From Eledone cirrhosa (lineage: Eukaryota): a stretch of DNA of 64,000 bases. The DNA lies in contig OZ024746.1 in NCBI GenBank assembly GCA_964016885.1, positions 35,526,001 through 35,590,000 on the forward strand, written 5' to 3'. Below, piece after piece: positions 13,032 through 63,318 of the stretch. The notes under the pieces were generated by a model that worked only from the letters and a program-made list of their open reading frames with translations, was not told where the DNA came from and did not search any database. Within the stretch, counting starts at the first letter, position 1; each line of letters starts with the position of its first letter. The translations under genes were made by a program, and so were the position numbers.

Positions 13032-16000
13032 AGCTGCATTTATCTTTCTTTATGTTCATACGAGTTATCACCAAGTCACAACCAGTGACCTCAAGAGACA
13101 ACAAGGTCCGCCATATTCAAGAAAGAACATACATACTCACACATGCATCTTTAGGTGTTTAGACTTGTGATGTACTTATATTGACAGAATCTTCCTTAGT
13201 ATATGGGCAGTTCCCATTAGTACTATCTTTTGTATTTCTTCCTGGGATTTGCGATAAGTAATCATTAGACCCCTTAGGTATCATTCCTAGAACGCCTACA
13301 ACCACTGGTATTGTTTTAGTTCTCAATTTCCACATTTTTCCAATTTCTATATCCAGGTCCTTATACTTGCTCAATTTTTCAAATGTTTTTTATAGATACG
13401 TTCTTAACTATTGGAACGGACGTATCAATTATCAGGCATACCCTCTTTTTAAAGTCCTTCATTATTATATCAGGTATATTTGCATCTATTTTTCGGTCTG
13501 TTTGGATGCTAAAGTTCCACAAGATTGAGATGTGATCTCTTTCAAGTATGGGACGTGGTTGATGCTCCCAACAATCCTTTTGATGGGGCAGGTCAAAATG
13601 CTTACACATTATCCAATGTATGTATTGTGCAGCTCTGTCATGCCTGTTTAGGTATTCGGTTGGAGCTATAGGACTGCACATTGAAATTATATGATCGATG
13701 GTCTCTGGTCGTTTTTTACATACACGGCATAATGGGTTGCATCCATTTTTTATTATGTTGGCTTGGTAATTTTTTGTTGGCAGAAACTGTTCTTGTGCTG
13801 ACGTAATCAATCCTTCAATCTCCGATTTCAGTCCAGAGGATGCCAACCACTGATGGATTAAAGTTTTGTCAACATCAGGATTGTTAGCTCTTTGGGGGTA
13901 TTTTCCATACAAAGGCTTTTCTTGCCATTTCTTAGCCAGTTTCTGTAGCAGTTCTTTATTTGCAGTTACTTTTACCTGCTTTGCATTTTCTGTGTTTTCA
14001 TTTCAGCAGTAAATGGAACTTCTGAGATTTGTAGTCCATTACTGTATCTTTGTGCATCTTTTGTAATGGATTATGATCTTTTGATGCTTTCGTGTTTCAA
14101 AACGACTTTGATCATCCAATCATGTGATTCCCTTAGATATGTAGATAATCCAATTGTTGCAGTTTTCAACGCAATATCTAACTGGATTAACCCACGCCCT
14201 CCTTCTTTCCTAGATATTCTATCTGTATCTGCCTTAGGGTGATGCATTCTGTGCATGGTTAAGAATTTTCTAATTTTTGTATCGAGCCTACGGATCTTTG
14301 TGCTTGACCAGTTGATGACATTGTAACTGTACGTTACTACTCGTATGGCAAGCGTGTTTATGGCATCGATCCTTTTCCTTGCATTCAATTCCGTTCTTAA
14401 GATTGCTCTTACTCTGCGGTAACATTCCTTCCTTATCCTCTCCCTCATTTTCGAAGTGCTTGATTCCGTCTCCTTCACAAACACCTATATATTTGTAAGT
14501 TTCCTCTTGATCAAGTTCTCTTATCAAATCCCCCTGATTAAGATTAATGTCTGAACTTTTCAGCAGCTTTCCTCTTGTGAACGTTGCTTTGGCGCATTTA
14601 TCTAGTCCAAACTACATTTTAATGTCATCACTGAACTGCTTCACATTGGATATTAGCCCTTGCAATTGTTCATCATTTTCTTGCAAATAGTTTCAGGTCA
14701 TCCATGTAGAAAAGGTGACTAATGATTTTGTCACAGACTTTATATCCATGTTCTGTTTCATTGAGCATTTTACTTAATGGTATAAGCGCGATGCAGAATA
14801 AAAGTGGTGATAAAGTGTCACCCTGAACAATTCCACAATTAATATTAACTTCTCCAGCTTCCAGTGATTTTGTTTTCACTATTCAAAAGGAGTGTCGTTT
14901 TCTATGTCTTCATACTGAATGAGAGGAACCTCCTGACAACGGGAGATATTTTGAAAATCTCTAAACATTTTTCAATCCAATTTTGTGGCAAACTATCGAA
15001 TGCTTTTTTATAATCTATCCAAGCAATTGATAGATTTTTGTGTCTATTATGACAATCTTCCAGTATCATTTTGTTAACCAAAAGCTGATCTTTACAGCCA
15101 TATGAGACTTACACCCTTTCTGCTCATTGGGAAATAGATCATTTGTTATCAGGTGGTGATATGTATATTCAGTTAGGAGTGATGTTAAAATCTTATACAT
15201 TGTGGTCTAGCAAGTTATCGGTCTGTAACATTTGGGATTGTTTGTCTCATCATTCTTCGGAAGTAGGAATGTAATGCCGTTAACTAGCCATGATGGTATC
15301 TTTTCTGGCTCCTTAACTATTTCATTGTAATGTTGGGCTAAAAGCTCACGAGACTCTGTGAAGGCCAATTATCCAAAAATTTGGTATTTTGTCTTTTCCT
15401 GGGGATTTTCATTTGCTGGTTTTTCTAAGAGCCAAACGCAACTGTTCAACTGTTATATTTTCCCATGTTATGTTTGTTCCTCAAGGTGAGCTGTTTCATT
15501 CATTTGTCTGTCTATCCATGGGGCATGTCTATTATGAACTTTTTCTTCAGCCCAGATCTTTTCCCATAATTCTTGCACTTCCTCCTTGGGTGGTATTGAT
15601 TTAGCAGTTATTGTGGACTTGCCAATTTTTCTATAGAATTTTCTTTGGTTGTTTTTGAACATATTATTGTCCTTATAGAATCTAGATCGTTTTTCAAAGC
15701 GCCTTATACGAGCAGTTTTGGCCGACACTTTTTGCCTGATTATTTGTATCAGCATGTATATGCCACTTGATGATTTTATACTGTATTTTCTTTTCAATTT
15801 TCTAAGTTTAGGTTGTTTAACATGTTCACCTACTTTGTAGTTTGTTAAAATTTCTATGTCATATCGGAGAAGTTTTATTTGGTGATTGATTTTTTCTTGC
15901 CAAGTAGATTTCTTGTGGGAATTCCTTTGTTTTTTCATTTTCACTCCACATAACTGAGTGGTGACTTTAGCCGATGCATAATAGAGATGATTTAGATCAG

Positions 16001-19580: not shown

Positions 19581-19584
<4 letters not shown>

Positions 19585-19740
19585 AAAAGTTATGTCTCCG
19601 ACGGCAGAGCTCAAGCCGTGTCAACGGCTATTTCTGAACTAAATTATAATTGAGATCTACCGTCGGAGTCATACCTTTTCCTATTATCCACTCTACTACC
19701 CTAAGTATTGAGTACTCTTGTGTGTTATGGTCCTTCGTTA
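19581..19740 (+). mobile_element. Fold-back hairpin+tail element, family B (degraded copy)
   Basis: Shares GACGGCAGAGCTCAAGCCG and the tail CACTCTACTACCCTAAGTATTGAGTAC with other family B copies; TA-flanked. Confidence 0.75.
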
Positions 19741-19763
19741 TATATATATATATATATATATAT

Positions 19764-19958
19764 AACGAAGGAAATGTGGTAAGGAAACAGATGGACCATA
19801 AACCACCAAAGTACTCAATACTTAGGGTAGTAGGGTGGATAATAGGAACGAGTAGAACCCCGACGGCTGAGCTCAAACCGTTTCAACGGCTAATTCTGGA
19901 CGCAGAATTAGCCGTCGAAACGTCTTGAGCTCAGCCGTCGGGGTCTTACTCGTTCCTA
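19764..19958 (-). mobile_element. Fold-back hairpin+tail element, family B
   Basis: Hairpin 19843-19958 plus ~80-bp tail; TA-flanked. Confidence 0.85.
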
Positions 19959-20015: not shown

Positions 20016-20101
<86 letters not shown>

Positions 20102-20102
20102 G

Positions 20103-21173
20103 TGAGAACAGGGTGAAAGAGACGATTATTAGGAAGAAAAAAATATTTGTTTCCCTTTTTATTTCCTTCTCTCATTTTTCTGGGTTAGAAAATGACTAAA
20201 ACGAAATGTTTTACTTTGTGTGAAGTCTTAATATATTAGTTGATTTATTTATTAATTAATAATGGAATTTATTTATCTATTTATATATTTACTCATCGTC
20301 TAATACCGGTTTCAGCATTTTTATGCATTATCAAATGATATTAATATGTATTGGTGTAGAATGGCGGTGTTGCACGTGTTAAAGAAATGGTGCAGAAAGA
20401 ATCATTTTATTTACAAGTCGTGCAGAAAGAATAATGTTATTAATAAGTGAAAAGAAAAAAGAAAAAAGAAAAAAGAAAAAAGAAAAAAGAAAAAAAAGAA
20501 AAAGAAAAAAGAAAAAAGAAAAAAAGAAAAAAGAAAAAAGAAAAAAGAAAAAAGAAAAAAGAAAAAAGAAAAAAGAAAAAAGAAATAATAAAAAAAGAAA
20601 AAAAGAAAAAAAAGAAAAGAAAAAAGAAAAAAGAAAAAAAGGAACGTAATGAGGAGCATAACAAGTAATGTGAAAGAAAAATGAATGTTATTTACAGGCA
20701 GATCAAAATGTGTTAATATAGCAAGAGTGTTTAGTTGATCCATGATTCCATGATGGATCAAATATGCTTGCAAATAACACTATTTTTTCTTTCACTTTGA
20801 CTTTTTATGCTTCACATTACGCCCCCTTTTTTTTTCTTTTTTCTTTTCACTTCAATAACCTTGTTTGTAAATAACATTATTCTTTCTGCACCATTTCTTT
20901 AACATGTGCAACAGCACCATTCTACACCAATACATATCACTATCATTTGATAATGCATAAAAATGCTGAAACCGCTAATAGACAATTATTAAATATATAA
21001 ATGGATAAATAAATTCCATTATTAATTAATAAATAAATCAACTAATACTTTAACACTTCACACAAAGTAAAACATTTCGTTTTAAACAGTTTCTAACCCA
21101 GAAAAAAGAGAGAAGGAGATAAAAAGGGGAACAAATATTTATTTCTTTCTAATAATCGTCTCTTTCTCCCTGT

Positions 21174-21178
<5 letters not shown>
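20103..21178. mobile_element. Inverted pair of PLE 3' ends (same family as 16545-18344)
   Basis: 20103-20760 is the reverse complement and 20770-21178 a direct copy of ~17815-18344; (TA)n on both sides; expanded (GAAAAAA)n at 20450-20640. Confidence 0.85.
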
Positions 21179-21232
<54 letters not shown>

Positions 21233-22124
21233 CATGTGTGCGTGTGTGTGTGTGCGTGTGTGTGTGTTTGTGTATGTGTGTGTGTGTGTGTGTGTATGTG
21301 TGTGTATGTATACATACACCACCTAAATGGGATTCCTCCGATTAACCGTACTCCATAAAGTGCATAGCTCGGAGATAAGAGCGTCACTACAGGTAGAGAC
21401 TGTAATTCTCCGCATTGAGAAACAACTGTTCCGATACTATGGGCATGAGGTTTGAATGTGTCAGGAAATATTCGTTGGATAAATTTTACGGGTAAAATCA
21501 AATCACCTCGCCACAAAAACACCAAAACCACTACCACTCTAACACAAAGAACCTGATACTACACCGATAAAGTTCACACCTTTACAACTACATCGCATTC
21601 ATTAAACCTCGACCACAACACCACGGGGATACCATTGCAAAATACCGCCTTTACACTATCGACAATAATTAGAACTCCATATATATCATTATCATTTCCA
21701 TTTCATTAATTAGCACACCATCACCCTTTACATTCTCCTGTATAACGAAGCCATAAGCACAATATTACAGACATTATATATAGTACGACTCCAAACGCCA
21801 CCATAACATTTTAAGACACCAGTTTCACAATGATTATTACACTTCTTACTTTCGTCATCACCATACCCTTAACAATAACCTCGTCCTTCATTTCAGTTAC
21901 TGGTGACAGACAAGCATTAGGATTACATTTCAATTTCTATGGAACCTGTCAGACGAAGAAATTCAATCTAATCGATTTGCCGATTTGCATAATTATACAG
22001 ACTGATTGATTCATACAGTTCTTTTAATACAACATTGAAATCAATAATTTTCTGTCGACTGCAAGTATTATATTAACCTCACTCTATTCCCATCTTCTCT
22101 ATTTCTTTTACCTACCAGCATATA

Positions 22125-22181: not shown

Positions 22182-22744
22182 GTGCAACCACGCAGTTTTC
22201 CTCTTTCTTCCCATGTTATTAATACATATTTACCTCGACTGCGATTGTCTGTTTCTCTCTTTCTGCTCCCCCGTTCTCTCTGTTTCTCTCACCTTCTTTC
22301 GCCCCATCTGTCAGTTACACTTTCTCTCGACTGACCTCTTCTTCGCACTTCCACTCACTCACTCTCTGTTTCTCCCCTTCTCACTTCCTCCCGTTCGTAA
22401 GTAGTGGGATTCTTTCTTTCTCACATCTCATTCACGTCGGACGGTCTGTTTTCTGACCGCTCATGAAATTCACCCACCATATGCTGACCGATAACCATCA
22501 TGTTGCTTGCTTTTTTCCTACCTTCGGTTTGCTTTTCCTTCTATGTTGTTTACTTGTCTCACTCGCTTTACGCGATTCACTTGTCCCAATAGCTTATTTT
22601 AGTTATTGCTCGCACCAACCTGAGGTATATGATTTTTAATGCGATGAAATACCAATGATGGTTGGAAAATCACTGATGAGGGTCTAATTTTATAATATGT
22701 AACCCATGTGCAACGACGCAGTTTTCCTCTTTCTTCCCATGTTT
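22180..22744 (+). mobile_element. ~565-bp TA-flanked element with ~37-bp terminal direct repeats
   Basis: ATGTGCAACCACGCAGTTTTCCTCTTTCTTCCCATGTT at 22180 and, with one mismatch, at 22706; CTGATGA at 22673. Confidence 0.6.
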
Positions 22745-25300: not shown

Positions 25301-25396
25301 TATACATATATACATACATACATATATATATATATATAAACATATATACATACATATATACATACGTACATATTATTACATATATATATATATATA

Positions 25397-25976
25397 TATG
25401 AAAGAAGGAAGTTATAGTTCACTTGAAGCATTGTGTTATGAGGTATAAACGTTTGTATTTGTAAAGCCAAAACAATGCAGGTATAGACATAGAATATAAA
25501 TGCAAATGCAAAGATATTGTTGACAATTAGTCTTTTATCTTAAATTTATTTAAATGTCCTTAATTTTCGAGATAATATCTCTTCTTCGGAGGGGAGTAAA
25601 GCGGTTAAACCAGTGTTCTAAATAGCTTGCCAAGTGATGCTGACAGGAAATGGTGTAGAATATCTGTTCTATCTCTAACCTTAACTCTTTGACATTAGAG
25701 ATATAACATATATTCAATACCATTTCCTGTCAGCATGAATTGGTAAGCTATTTAGAACACTGGTTGAACCGCTTTACTTCCCTCCGAAGAAGGGATATTA
25801 TCTCGAAAATTAAGGACATTTAAATAAATTTAAGGTAAAAGACTAATTGTCAACAATATCTTTGCATTTGCATTTATATTCTATGTCTATACCTGCATTG
25901 TTTTGGTTTTACAAATACAAACGTTTATACCTCATTACACAATGCTTCAAGTGAACTATAACTTCCTTCTTTCATA
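25397..25976. mobile_element. ~580-bp fold-back element (family C) in (TA)n
   Basis: Arms of ~280 bp (ATGAAAGAAGGAAGTTATAG ... CTATAACTTCCTTCTTTCAT), near-identical, short spacer around 25679-25694. Confidence 0.9.
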
Positions 25977-26033
25977 TATATATATGTATATATATATATG
26001 TATGTATATATATGAATGTATATATGTTTATAT

Positions 26034-26746: not shown

Positions 26747-27194
<448 letters not shown>

Positions 27195-31414: not shown

Positions 31415-31449
31415 CATATATATACATATATATATATACATATATATAC

Positions 31450-31488
<39 letters not shown>

Positions 31489-31498
31489 CATATATAAT

Positions 31499-31536
<38 letters not shown>

Positions 31537-31586
31537 ACAATATATACGATATTAATAAATGGAAAGTATATTTATAAGACCATATT

Positions 31587-31651
31587 TATTTCATTATACA
31601 TATTTCGGGGATACCAAATTAAATTATGGTATGCCTTCATCAGACAAAATA
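31587..31651 (-). ncRNA. Minimal type I hammerhead (mirror copy)
   Basis: Reverse complement TATTTTGT-CTGATGA-AGGCATACCA...TGGTATCCCC-GAAATATGTATA-ATGAAATA. Confidence 0.7.
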
Positions 31652-31799
31652 CAATATATAACAGTTTTACAAATAAGCTTTGACGTACCCTTTTAAAATG
31701 CGACCATTATTTTAAGAGGCCATCTGGATGGCCTCCAAAAATAATGGTCGCATTTTAAAAGGGTACGTCAAAGCTTATTTGTAAAACTGTTATATATTG

Positions 31800-31864
31800 T
31801 ATTTTGTCTGATGAAGGCATAACATAATTTAATTTGGTATCCCTGAAATATGTATAATGAAATA
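31800..31864 (+). ncRNA. Minimal type I hammerhead
   Basis: 8-bp stem I with two G-U pairs, CTGATGA, stem II, GAAA-TATGTA-TA, predicted AUA triplet. Confidence 0.7.
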
Positions 31865-32206
31865 AATATGGTTCTATAAATATAGTTTCCATTTATTAAT
31901 ATCGTATATCTACTCCAAATACTTGTCGAGTGCTTTATATCAGTTATAACAATATTTACTTTTGCATATATAACATATAGAACTTTTGCATATATAACAA
32001 TATAACAATATATATATATATATATATATGGGATGTAATGTGCAGTTACTGTTTGTTTCAACCGAGTAAGCACTTGATACGTAGTTCCCAGTCCTTTTAT
32101 TACACACATATACCCTTATATATATATATATGTACTTGTGTGTACGTGTGTGCATGTGTGTGTGCGTGTGTGTCTGTGTGTACGTAAGTTTGTGTGTGTG
32201 TGTGTT

Positions 32207-40335: not shown

Positions 40336-40942
40336 CATATATACATACACACATATATACATACATAAATGCATACACACATGCATACATAAACACATGC
40401 ATGAATATATACGCACATATATACATACATAAATACATACCCACATATATACATACATAAATACATACATGCATACCTATATGACGACTTTTGATTTGTT
40501 ATCAAGCATGAAGATATTTTACGGTCCCCATCACATTAAAGAAGTAATACTTTGTTTACGGACATTGAAAGTGGCGAAGACACAATAACATGGAAATATG
40601 AACAAATTATGACGTAGAAACCGGTCGCCCATCAATATTTGGTTCACCTGTACAGCTCTCGAAAGAATCGCATCATTCAGTCATGTATAAATCCAGTCGA
40701 TTCGTCCATAATATTTTCACATCTATAAATTCATTCATCTATCCATTTATCCCTCTATCAATACATCCACCCATACATACACATATACATATATGCGTTA
40801 ATACACCCAGCCACCCATACATACATACGTACATACATACAAACACTCACATACACACACGTATATTTTATATATATACACACAACCCCCCCCCCCCACA
40901 CACACACACACATACATACATATATATGTATATATATATATA

Positions 40943-41173
40943 TTATTAGAAATGTTAGCTATCGCCGTATTTTGACTAAAGAAATTAAAGAAATTATTTA
41001 GCCTGATAGTGGGAGAAATGGAAAAAGATGAGTATTCTTTTTCCATTTCTCCGAGGGTTCTTAACCCCACTATCAGGCTAAATAATTTCTTTAATTTCTT
41101 TAGTCAAAATACGGCGATAGTTAACATTTCTAATAATTTCAAATCCACTCGGTGTTTCGAAAATATGCTTACT

Positions 41174-41248: not shown

Positions 41249-41249
<1 letters not shown>

Positions 41250-41446
41250 GTTATTCCGGGTTGAATCGGAGGAAACCACAGTAAGTAAGGTACTCAATAC
41301 ATAGCAGAGTATAAAAGTTTTAATATAGATGAGATTCTACAGGACTAGAACTGTTTCATTCTTTAGAAATCATCAGGAATCAGATTCCTGATGATTTCTA
41401 AAGAATGAAACAGTTCTAGTCCTGTAGAATCTCATCTATATTAAAA

Positions 41447-41449
<3 letters not shown>
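41249..41449 (-). mobile_element. Fold-back element with tail (family G)
   Basis: Perfect palindrome 41315-41449 (axis 41382) plus 66-bp tail; TA-flanked. Confidence 0.9.
41382..41432 (+). ncRNA. Canonical type I hammerhead ribozyme (mirror copy on - strand, 41332-41381)
   Basis: Stem I AGATTC/GAATCT; CTGATGA; short stem II TTCT-AA-AGAA; GAAA; stem III CAG-TTCTAGTC-CTG; GUA triplet. Confidence 0.8.
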
Positions 41450-44742: not shown

Positions 44743-44952
44743 TAGGAGTAAGTAAGACCCCTCGTATGCAAGCCGGTGCGGCTCGCTCTGAGCACTCTAA
44801 TTTTTTCACAGTGAAAATTAGAGTGCTCAGAGCGAGCCGCACCGGCTTGCATACGAGGAGTCTTACTTACTCCTATTACCCACTCTACTACCCTAAGTAT
44901 TGAGTACTTTGGAGCGTTATGGTCCACCTGGTTCCTTACCACTTTTCCCTCG

Positions 44953-44953
<1 letters not shown>
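44743..44953 (+). mobile_element. Fold-back hairpin+tail element, family B variant
   Basis: Hairpin 44743-44875 with a different inner sequence; same tail as family B. Confidence 0.85.
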
Positions 44954-51152: not shown

Positions 51153-51154
<2 letters not shown>

Positions 51155-51312
51155 CGCACCAAAGTACTCACTACTTAGGGTAGTAGAGTGGGTAATAGGA
51201 ACCAGTAAGACCCCGACGGCTGAGCTCAAGCCATTTCGACGGCTAATTCTGGACTAAAATCAGAATTAGCCGTCGAAACGGCTTGAGCTCAGCCGTCGAG
51301 GTCTTACTGGTT

Positions 51313-51316
<4 letters not shown>
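51153..51316 (-). mobile_element. Fold-back hairpin+tail element, family B
   Basis: Hairpin 51196-51316 with shortened tail; TA-flanked. Confidence 0.85.
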
Positions 51317-59854: not shown

Positions 59855-61400
<1,546 letters not shown>

Positions 61401-62853: not shown

Positions 62854-62989
62854 TAGAAAGTGAGGTTTTTTTTACAAAATGAAAAATAACCGAGGTGTCC
62901 TACACGAGTGGAAGTATAAAGAAAAAGGGATGAAATCGAAAATGCAACTGAAGTCTTATTTTTTTAAAAATATATATATTTATTTGGTT

Positions 62990-63027
62990 CCTTTACCGGT
63001 TTCGCAGTTCTTCTGCTTTTCAAAAGG
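62990..63027 (-). ncRNA. Minimal hammerhead with U3:A8 core (mirror copy)
   Basis: Exact reverse complement of 63103-63140. Confidence 0.75.
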
Positions 63028-63102
63028 TGAGTTGAGATGGAGGGTCTGTGGTTTTTCTCACATCAGATGTGAGAAAAACCACAGACCCTCCATCTCAACT
63101 CA

Positions 63103-63140
63103 CCTTTTGAAAAGCAGAAGAACTGCGAAACCGGTAAAGG
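63103..63140 (+). ncRNA. Minimal hammerhead with U3:A8 core
   Basis: CCTT-TTGAAAA-GCAG-AAGAA-CTGC-GAAA-CCGG-TA-AAGG: perfect stems I and II, palindromic CCGG stem III, GUA triplet. Confidence 0.75.
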
Positions 63141-63209
63141 AACCAAATAAATATATATATTTTTTAAAAAAATAAGACTTAAGTTGCATTTTCGATTTCA
63201 TCCCTTTTT

Positions 63210-63318
<109 letters not shown>

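Follow-up and report, generated by a model that had tools for sequence, protein, structure and literature searches.

Half-hammerhead palindromes of Eledone cirrhosa as probable short head-to-head insertions of a Penelope element

The repeats described here, palindromes built from two copies of one half of a hammerhead ribozyme, are very short head-to-head insertions of the pLTR end of a Penelope element, probably made by priming from two target strands on one RNA, run-off at the 5′ end of that RNA, and joining of the two cDNAs. The origin of the inverted repeats and the one-sided tail of Penelope-like elements (PLEs), and the cutting of their hammerheads in vivo, are open questions according to the available text of earlier work (PMC8557442, PMC3846280, PMC11167929).

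Palindromes in the window and their copy number

The window (the whole stretch of 64,000 nucleotides that was analyzed) holds four copies of the unit, here called family B, of ~160–190 nt each and lying between (TA)n runs; three of the four are palindromes, composed of two ~55-nt arms with a ~80-nt tail at one side. Arm identity is 46/51 in 19765–19956, 51/53 in 51154–51314, and 49/50 in 61027–61217, and every arm of these three reads GAAAC-GGC-TTGAGCTC(A/T)-GCC-GTC-GGGGT. A sequence-only reading of the window had drawn attention to this arm motif and to the absence of CTGANGA, and both were seen again in all three. A 5′ hammerhead core was found in none of the four window copies, so that the palindromes lack a complete catalytic core; for the window, Rfam returned low-complexity miRNA-type matches only, and no hammerhead, among the 150 of 233 matches listed. 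The segment 61037–61127 folds with a z of −17.95, and the four copies have four different joints. The features are as follows, read from the sequence except where comparison with the parent element is named.

19765..19844, minus strand: tail, the first ~80 nt of the parent 5′UTR, which runs on into the 5′UTR and ORF in full-length copies
19845..19901, minus strand: tail-bearing arm, the 3′ hammerhead half, extending 17 nt 5′ of G12 (parent comparison)
19902..19902, no strand: joint, a single base outside both arms (read against the parent)
19903..19956, plus strand: tail-less arm, extending 14 nt 5′ of G12, with TA at its end
19583..19738, plus strand: neighboring copy with a right-hand tail
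51154..51314, minus strand: copy with a shortened tail, starting at another TA within the tail
61027..61217, plus strand: copy with a right-hand tail
44745..44953, plus strand: family B end and tail, with arms running into an 18S rRNA fragment

The tail-bearing arm at 19845..19901 runs in the order helix II 3′ strand, GAAA, helix III, GUC site, and helix I 3′ strand; in the tail-less arm at 19903..19956, GAAA occupies 19917–19920 and the predicted scissile site follows 19939. We infer that the TA at 19763–19764 is the distal RT start site and the TA at 19843–19844 the proximal one.

Across the 3.0-Gb genome, the exact palindromic core pattern occurs at 15,732 places, against 0 for a control with the pattern reversed, and the arm-plus-tail pattern at 22,700. 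Each pattern recovers the other in part, the arm-plus-tail pattern finding 22 of 47 core matches and the core pattern 25 of 98 arm-plus-tail matches, and from this cross-recovery a rough recapture estimate of ~40,000–50,000 copies is obtained. Copies in such numbers constitute a large natural record of the reaction, showing a pair of start sites, a single stop site, and arms independent of each other. Most of the sampling fell within the first 26 Mb of one chromosome, and the patterns favor young copies; the long-arm sets were chosen for having a long arm. Contigs of sequencing runs X1, X2, and X4 contain the family, with no piece spanning the whole of the copy under study.

Other families were encountered in the same window. 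At 41249–41448, a complete C3-G8 type I hammerhead motif of a different family (core at 41388) is set as a palindrome, with a one-sided tail of its own that shares a motif, GTACTCAATAC. Another palindromic family, at 62855–63212, has a complete-looking U3-A8 core (TTGAAAAG...GAAA) in both arms. Further inverted repeats between (TA)n runs lie at 25334–26033, 26749–27194, 31425–32030, 40942–41137, and 20046–21235, and these five are probably inverted insertions of other Penelope families; the one at 31425–32030 contains a CTGATGA...GAAA pattern. A family ending in a CTGATGA hairpin stands close to (TA)n at window positions 515 and 31003.

The unfolded parent and its hammerhead

Rare longer arms led to the unfolded copies of the family, which represent a ~3.05-kb Neptune-like Penelope element with an RT and, at its C terminus, a GIY-YIG. 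The layout is pLTR-tail-5′UTR-RT-EN-3′UTR-pLTR, with ~3.05–3.1 kb from arm to arm in L295, L300, and L303 (among 20 long copies fetched), and from this layout the tail can be identified as the first 80 nt after the pLTR, with a TA dinucleotide at both ends. There are at least seven outer-arm subfamilies, each with its own unfolded parent. In one copy (L091), an RT frame of 318 aa is accompanied by a Cys-rich linker, a GIY-YIG-type C-terminus, and C-terminal Cys/His motifs. The frames of two broken natural copies (L091 and L308) are 32–40% identical to four proteins of 806–953 aa, two of which have weak Pfam GIY-YIG matches below the cut-off; the EN region matches at E values of 2e-11 and 2e-18. 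Pfam gave no match for the parent's own frames, and an intact ORF occurs in 0 of the 20 long copies examined.

The available text of PMC8557442 and PMC3846280 describes EN+ PLEs of the Neptune clade in which the RT is followed by a GIY-YIG EN, a Cys linker lies upstream of that EN, and the pLTRs, in partial tandem, carry a hammerhead. The element found here shares with EN+ PLEs the order of RT and GIY-YIG, the partial tandem pLTRs, the inverted 5′-truncated copy, and the tail at one end; of the Neptune features (a CX2-5CxxC-type linker before GIY-YIG, a CCHH motif, and (TA)n targets), it shows the Cys-rich linker and C-terminal Cys/His motifs seen in L091, and (TA)n targets, which tail-less arms adjoin at a fixed distance in 73 of 118 cases. 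It is assigned to a known order because PLEs are already described as targeting (TA)n, carrying a one-sided tail and pLTR hammerheads, and leaving inverted truncated copies (available text of PMC8557442); by its motifs the clade is probably Neptune, with Hydra as a possible alternative, and the family may already be named in Repbase. Unlike in the EN+ PLEs of those accounts, the tail is ~80 nt rather than 30–40 nt, and most insertions consist of two ~55-nt arms stopping inside the ribozyme, a hot spot of a kind that their available text does not describe.

An RT lying upstream in another copy (L094) was considered as the parent RT and rejected, since it belongs to another Penelope family and L094 is a chimera. 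A second abundant Penelope family (L254, L238, L248, L257) has a long low-complexity insertion between its RT and endonuclease regions. Repeated RT-containing parent copies (L305, L311, L312) lie at 352.0–352.5 Mb of contig C4, a region that also carries 18S genes ~40 kb apart.

The parent pLTR reads ACCCC-UUGAAAA-G, followed by helix II with a ~31-nt loop, GAAA, helix III, GUC, and GGGGU. This is a complete type I hammerhead motif in which U3-A8 replaces C3-G8 and the 5′ core is UUGANAA, and it occurs at 281 exact places genome-wide, against 0 in the control. The sequence-only reading had interpreted the arms as one half, the 3′ one, of a type I hammerhead from a Penelope element, and it would have yielded either to the lack of an unfolded parent with a complete core or to transposition as a fixed unit with DNA-transposon hallmarks; the arms do match the motif of the unfolded parent, that parent exists in 281 exact copies, and no such fixed unit was found. 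The half that it supposed to have been replaced, CUGAUGA, is in fact UUGANAA: among 72 unselected complete cores, U3 is present in 68, U4 in 71, G5 in 65, A6 in 69, A8 in 69, and A9 in 68, with position 7 depending on the subfamily. Its predicted parent pattern, containing CTGANGA, gave 55 matches, and the 30 examined include no parent, all being chance matches in joints or chimeras with the hammerheads of other families.

Helices I–III are paired in 90% of 410 cells, compared with 28–51% when slid. Covariation gave 0 pairs changed on both sides among 18 close copies, Rfam returned no hammerhead match for L062, and the parent fold has a z of about −1. The Cercyon PLEs of Schistosoma mansoni have U3-A8 for C3-G8 in a pLTR type I motif, with motif pairs on opposite strands 100–700 bp apart (available text of PMC4209133). 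Two features set the parent apart from Cercyon as described there: a helix III of 5 pairs closed by a 9-nt loop (monomer-type), and a long helix II that contains an internal loop. Ribozyme searches based on CUGANGA miss such U3-A8 repeats. One subfamily (L139, L182; 4/72 cores) has C3 opposite A8 (CTGAGAA), a predicted mismatch. At L051, GAAA is the point where the hammerhead 5′ half of the CTGATGA-hairpin family meets the 3′ half from family B; this hybrid motif looks complete, and the search pattern itself selects such joints.

Joints, arm lengths, and the stop within helix II

In the proposed mechanism, both nicked strands of a (TA)n target would prime RT on one element RNA at two TA sites that lie 80 nt apart, so that one cDNA begins at the tail end and one at the arm end. 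Both cDNAs would run off the RNA 5′ end, inside the helix II loop, and their ends would be joined bluntly, with short templated insertions, or through microhomology of 1–4 nt; read-through tandem or circular RNA would account for the minority of long copies. The model combines the in vitro reaction of Poseidon with the stop, tail, and arm-length counts given below. With Anolis Poseidon PAc, both target strands are nicked and extended, and two internal RT start sites delimit the tail (PMC11167929, available text); here, likewise, two putative internal start sites bound the tail, and the targets are AT-rich in both. The available text of that paper contains no discussion of products that are inverted or palindromic, and its authors found no reads ending at the ribozyme site, whereas some genomic copies here end at the predicted cleavage site. 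The model is directly testable with the existing in vitro Penelope assay and a 5′-end map. In L1 twin priming, the second target strand primes on the same RNA, giving an inversion with a microhomology joint; L1 inverts a different stretch, whereas here one and the same stretch would be copied into both cDNAs, with a palindrome offset by a fixed 80 nt as the product.

The two arms of a copy appear to come from one template. In 88 of 102 copies the two arms disagree at no more than 1 of 10 diagnostic letters, compared with 16% between copies, and short and long lengths are paired: 163 arm pairs include 128 short-short, 19 long-long, and 3 long-short. A long arm has a short partner in 3 of 27 cases. 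Both the agreement and the pairing argue for a single template. Among 47 palindromes taken regardless of tails from the 50 listed core matches, 45 have one tail, 1 has two, and 1 has a truncated tail.

The joints themselves vary. Genome-wide, their position is spread over about 12–21 nt 5′ of GAAA on either arm. For 61 short joints not selected for the joint, the median reach is 15 nt 5′ of G12 on both arms, and the tail arm exceeds the other in 27, falls short of it in 24, and matches it in 10 (rho 0.00). The sequence-only reading had placed the axis at exactly the same point in several copies, which does not hold, since there are 54 distinct joints in 61 copies, and in the window copy at 19583–19738 the left arm reaches ~27 nt past G12 while the right arm begins within helix III, without GAAA. 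Among 13 copies of a young subfamily whose members are near-identical, 12 joints are distinct, and both length directions are represented. Arm length ranges from about 55 nt to >2 kb; of 26 long insertions, 20 could be cleanly parsed, and in these the longer arm is the tail arm 7 times and the tail-less arm 13 times, with a median difference of 221 nt. Flip-flop of a fixed loop was rejected as an explanation, since the joints differ in length and not in orientation alone.

The main rival to two-ended priming, and an unlikely one, is that a single cDNA folds back near its 3′ end and primes its own extension into a hairpin, which is trimmed afterward at either of two TA sites. Such self-priming has been proposed for inverted junctions of Penelope (available text of PMC3846280); it would give arms from the same template and an rRNA joint common to both arms of the 18S chimera described below, and among 34 insertion-free joints 12 are compatible with fold-back of one or other arm (5 with the tail arm, 7 with the other). 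The other 22 fit neither arm and leave no room for a 3-nt loop. Self-priming needs a longer tail arm, or trimming that leaves exactly one tail on either side, whereas the arm lengths are symmetric and uncorrelated, the youngest copies included. Head-to-head joints with other Penelope families (L031, L040, L034, L197), moreover, are impossible from one cDNA.

The form of self-priming that had originally been suggested takes the central GACGGCTA...TAGCCGTC hairpin as helix II and as the primer. It should have kept the parent loop and made the tail-bearing arm always longer, and both expectations are contradicted: the tail arm is not consistently longer, and none of 86 parsed palindromes retains the 5′ half of the parent loop, a single pattern match being due to chance. 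A spacer long enough for the loop occurs in 1,205 matches, and by eye none of the 50 listed contains it. Nor is the central hairpin helix II, since its left half mirrors the right arm and the ~31-nt loop of the parent is absent.

Two-ended priming with run-off at an RNA 5′ end bears also on where the arms stop. Among 98 tail-bearing arms from the listed arm-plus-tail matches, 60 stop 11–24 nt 5′ of G12, 13 stop at 25–54, and 11 pass the core; the other 14 stop earlier or have no anchoring. At ~0.09 stops per nt, the hot spot has about 100-fold the rate found further upstream, where 23 stops over 30 copies and 26,314 nt past the core give 0.0009 per nt. The exact extents of 188 arms fall at −17 in 27, at −18 in 24, and at −19 in 3, with other peaks at −12 (24) and −14 (35), and solo arms and chimeras stop at the same site without a palindrome. 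In the upstream pLTRs of full-length copies, 0 of 10 stop at −11 to −26; the hot spot is therefore not a barrier on every passage.

The predicted RNA 5′ end inside the hammerhead helix II loop is likely, on the motifs around it, to be a transcription start. Position −18 is the A of TTAGTC, an initiator-like motif present in 48 of 53 unfolded copies, and a TATTTA-like box lies 29–31 nt upstream in 49 of 53. The motif and the distance of the box agree with the Inr and TATA consensus and spacing, and the conservation of the box has another explanation as well, since it is also the helix II 5′ strand. In 58 distinct solo arms joined to (TA)n, the non-A/T bases directly 5′ of A(−18) are G in 8 and C in 6, by eye, a weak suggestion that an extra G there is a cap-templated base. 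Under a start-site model, the peaks at −12 and −14 would require trimming or early stops. An RNA starting near A(−18) would not be cut at its 5′ end, because only the 3′ half of the ribozyme lies there. The D. virilis Penelope, according to the available text of PMC2377424, starts upstream of an intron whose end is helix I (available text of PMC4209133), so that its start is not inside helix II.

It is conceivable, and in our view quite improbable, that priming is two-ended and the common stop is instead a structural stall, for example if helix II forms again once the RT has passed and the cDNA is thereby displaced. The parent does fold helix II, and the hot spot starts just beyond the lower helix II 3′ strand (−3 to −11), as a stall would have it; however, none of the 10 second passages in full-length copies stops there, a long arm with a short partner is rare (the 3/27 above), and the edge at −18/−19 is sharp.

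The excess of short over complete copies (15,732 against 281 exact) would suit a non-autonomous family of short palindromes, re-transcribed and re-mobilized with its center reshuffled in each round. This is very improbable in the face of at least seven outer-arm subfamilies that each have their own unfolded parent, of joints that are nearly all distinct, and of solo arms and chimeras that stop at the same site with no palindrome; the short copies, further, are without the 5′ ORF region that the Poseidon protein required on its RNA (available text of PMC11167929). Fixed ends, TA flanks, and inverted arms notwithstanding, a DNA transposon with terminal inverted repeats, whether a MITE or another kind, is scarcely credible, being refuted by the parent structure, in which the ends fall at TA sites inside an RT-GIY-YIG element, and facing a one-sided tail, arms of about 55 nt to >2 kb, and long copies examined that contain no transposase frame and no fixed internal sequence between the repeats. 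Such palindromic repeats are easily mistaken for MITEs.

The 18S rRNA chimera and a wider reading

Both arms of the copy at 44745–44953 switch to 18S rRNA exactly at the predicted hammerhead scissile bond, with the 18S pieces lying at 44762–44815 (antisense) and 44812–44856 (sense). A pattern for this 18S fragment gave 23 matches; of five loci scanned, four are SSU rRNA genes and the fifth is this chimera, the only locus joined to family B among 20 fetched. The occurrence of one rRNA joint on both arms requires either an RNA-level chimera or the copying of one cDNA. The fusion would fit an RNA cleaved by the hammerhead and then joined to rRNA by a template jump or RNA ligation, a hint from one chimera only, whose rRNA joint on both arms is also expected from fold-back and whose center fits fold-back with a 3-nt loop. 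Among incidental tail-bearing copies, 4 of 59 end at the predicted cleavage site, by eye and with the chimera included.

It is possible, and we propose it tentatively, that two-ended priming at two RNA start sites explains the inverted pLTR plus tail across the whole order. The start would split the hammerhead, so that only the 3′ copy cuts; the palindromes would be paired "strong-stop" cDNAs, and the 18S fusion would reflect cleavage in vivo. In the papers searched, we found no family whose insertions consist mostly of two independent stubs that end at one intra-ribozyme site, and no two-ended priming model for PLEs; the available text of PMC13282606 contains neither "hammerhead" nor "palindrom." A non-LTR retrozyme, defined by units in tandem, every one of which has a complete type I hammerhead (available text of 10.64898/2026.07.22.740005), was considered and rejected, the copies here being dispersed, inverted, and half-ribozyme.

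Three further loci (L333, L338, L346) contain short 18S fragments whose 3′ ends lie a few bases from the chimera joint and which continue into non-rRNA sequence; one of them, L338, resembles a palindromic insertion.
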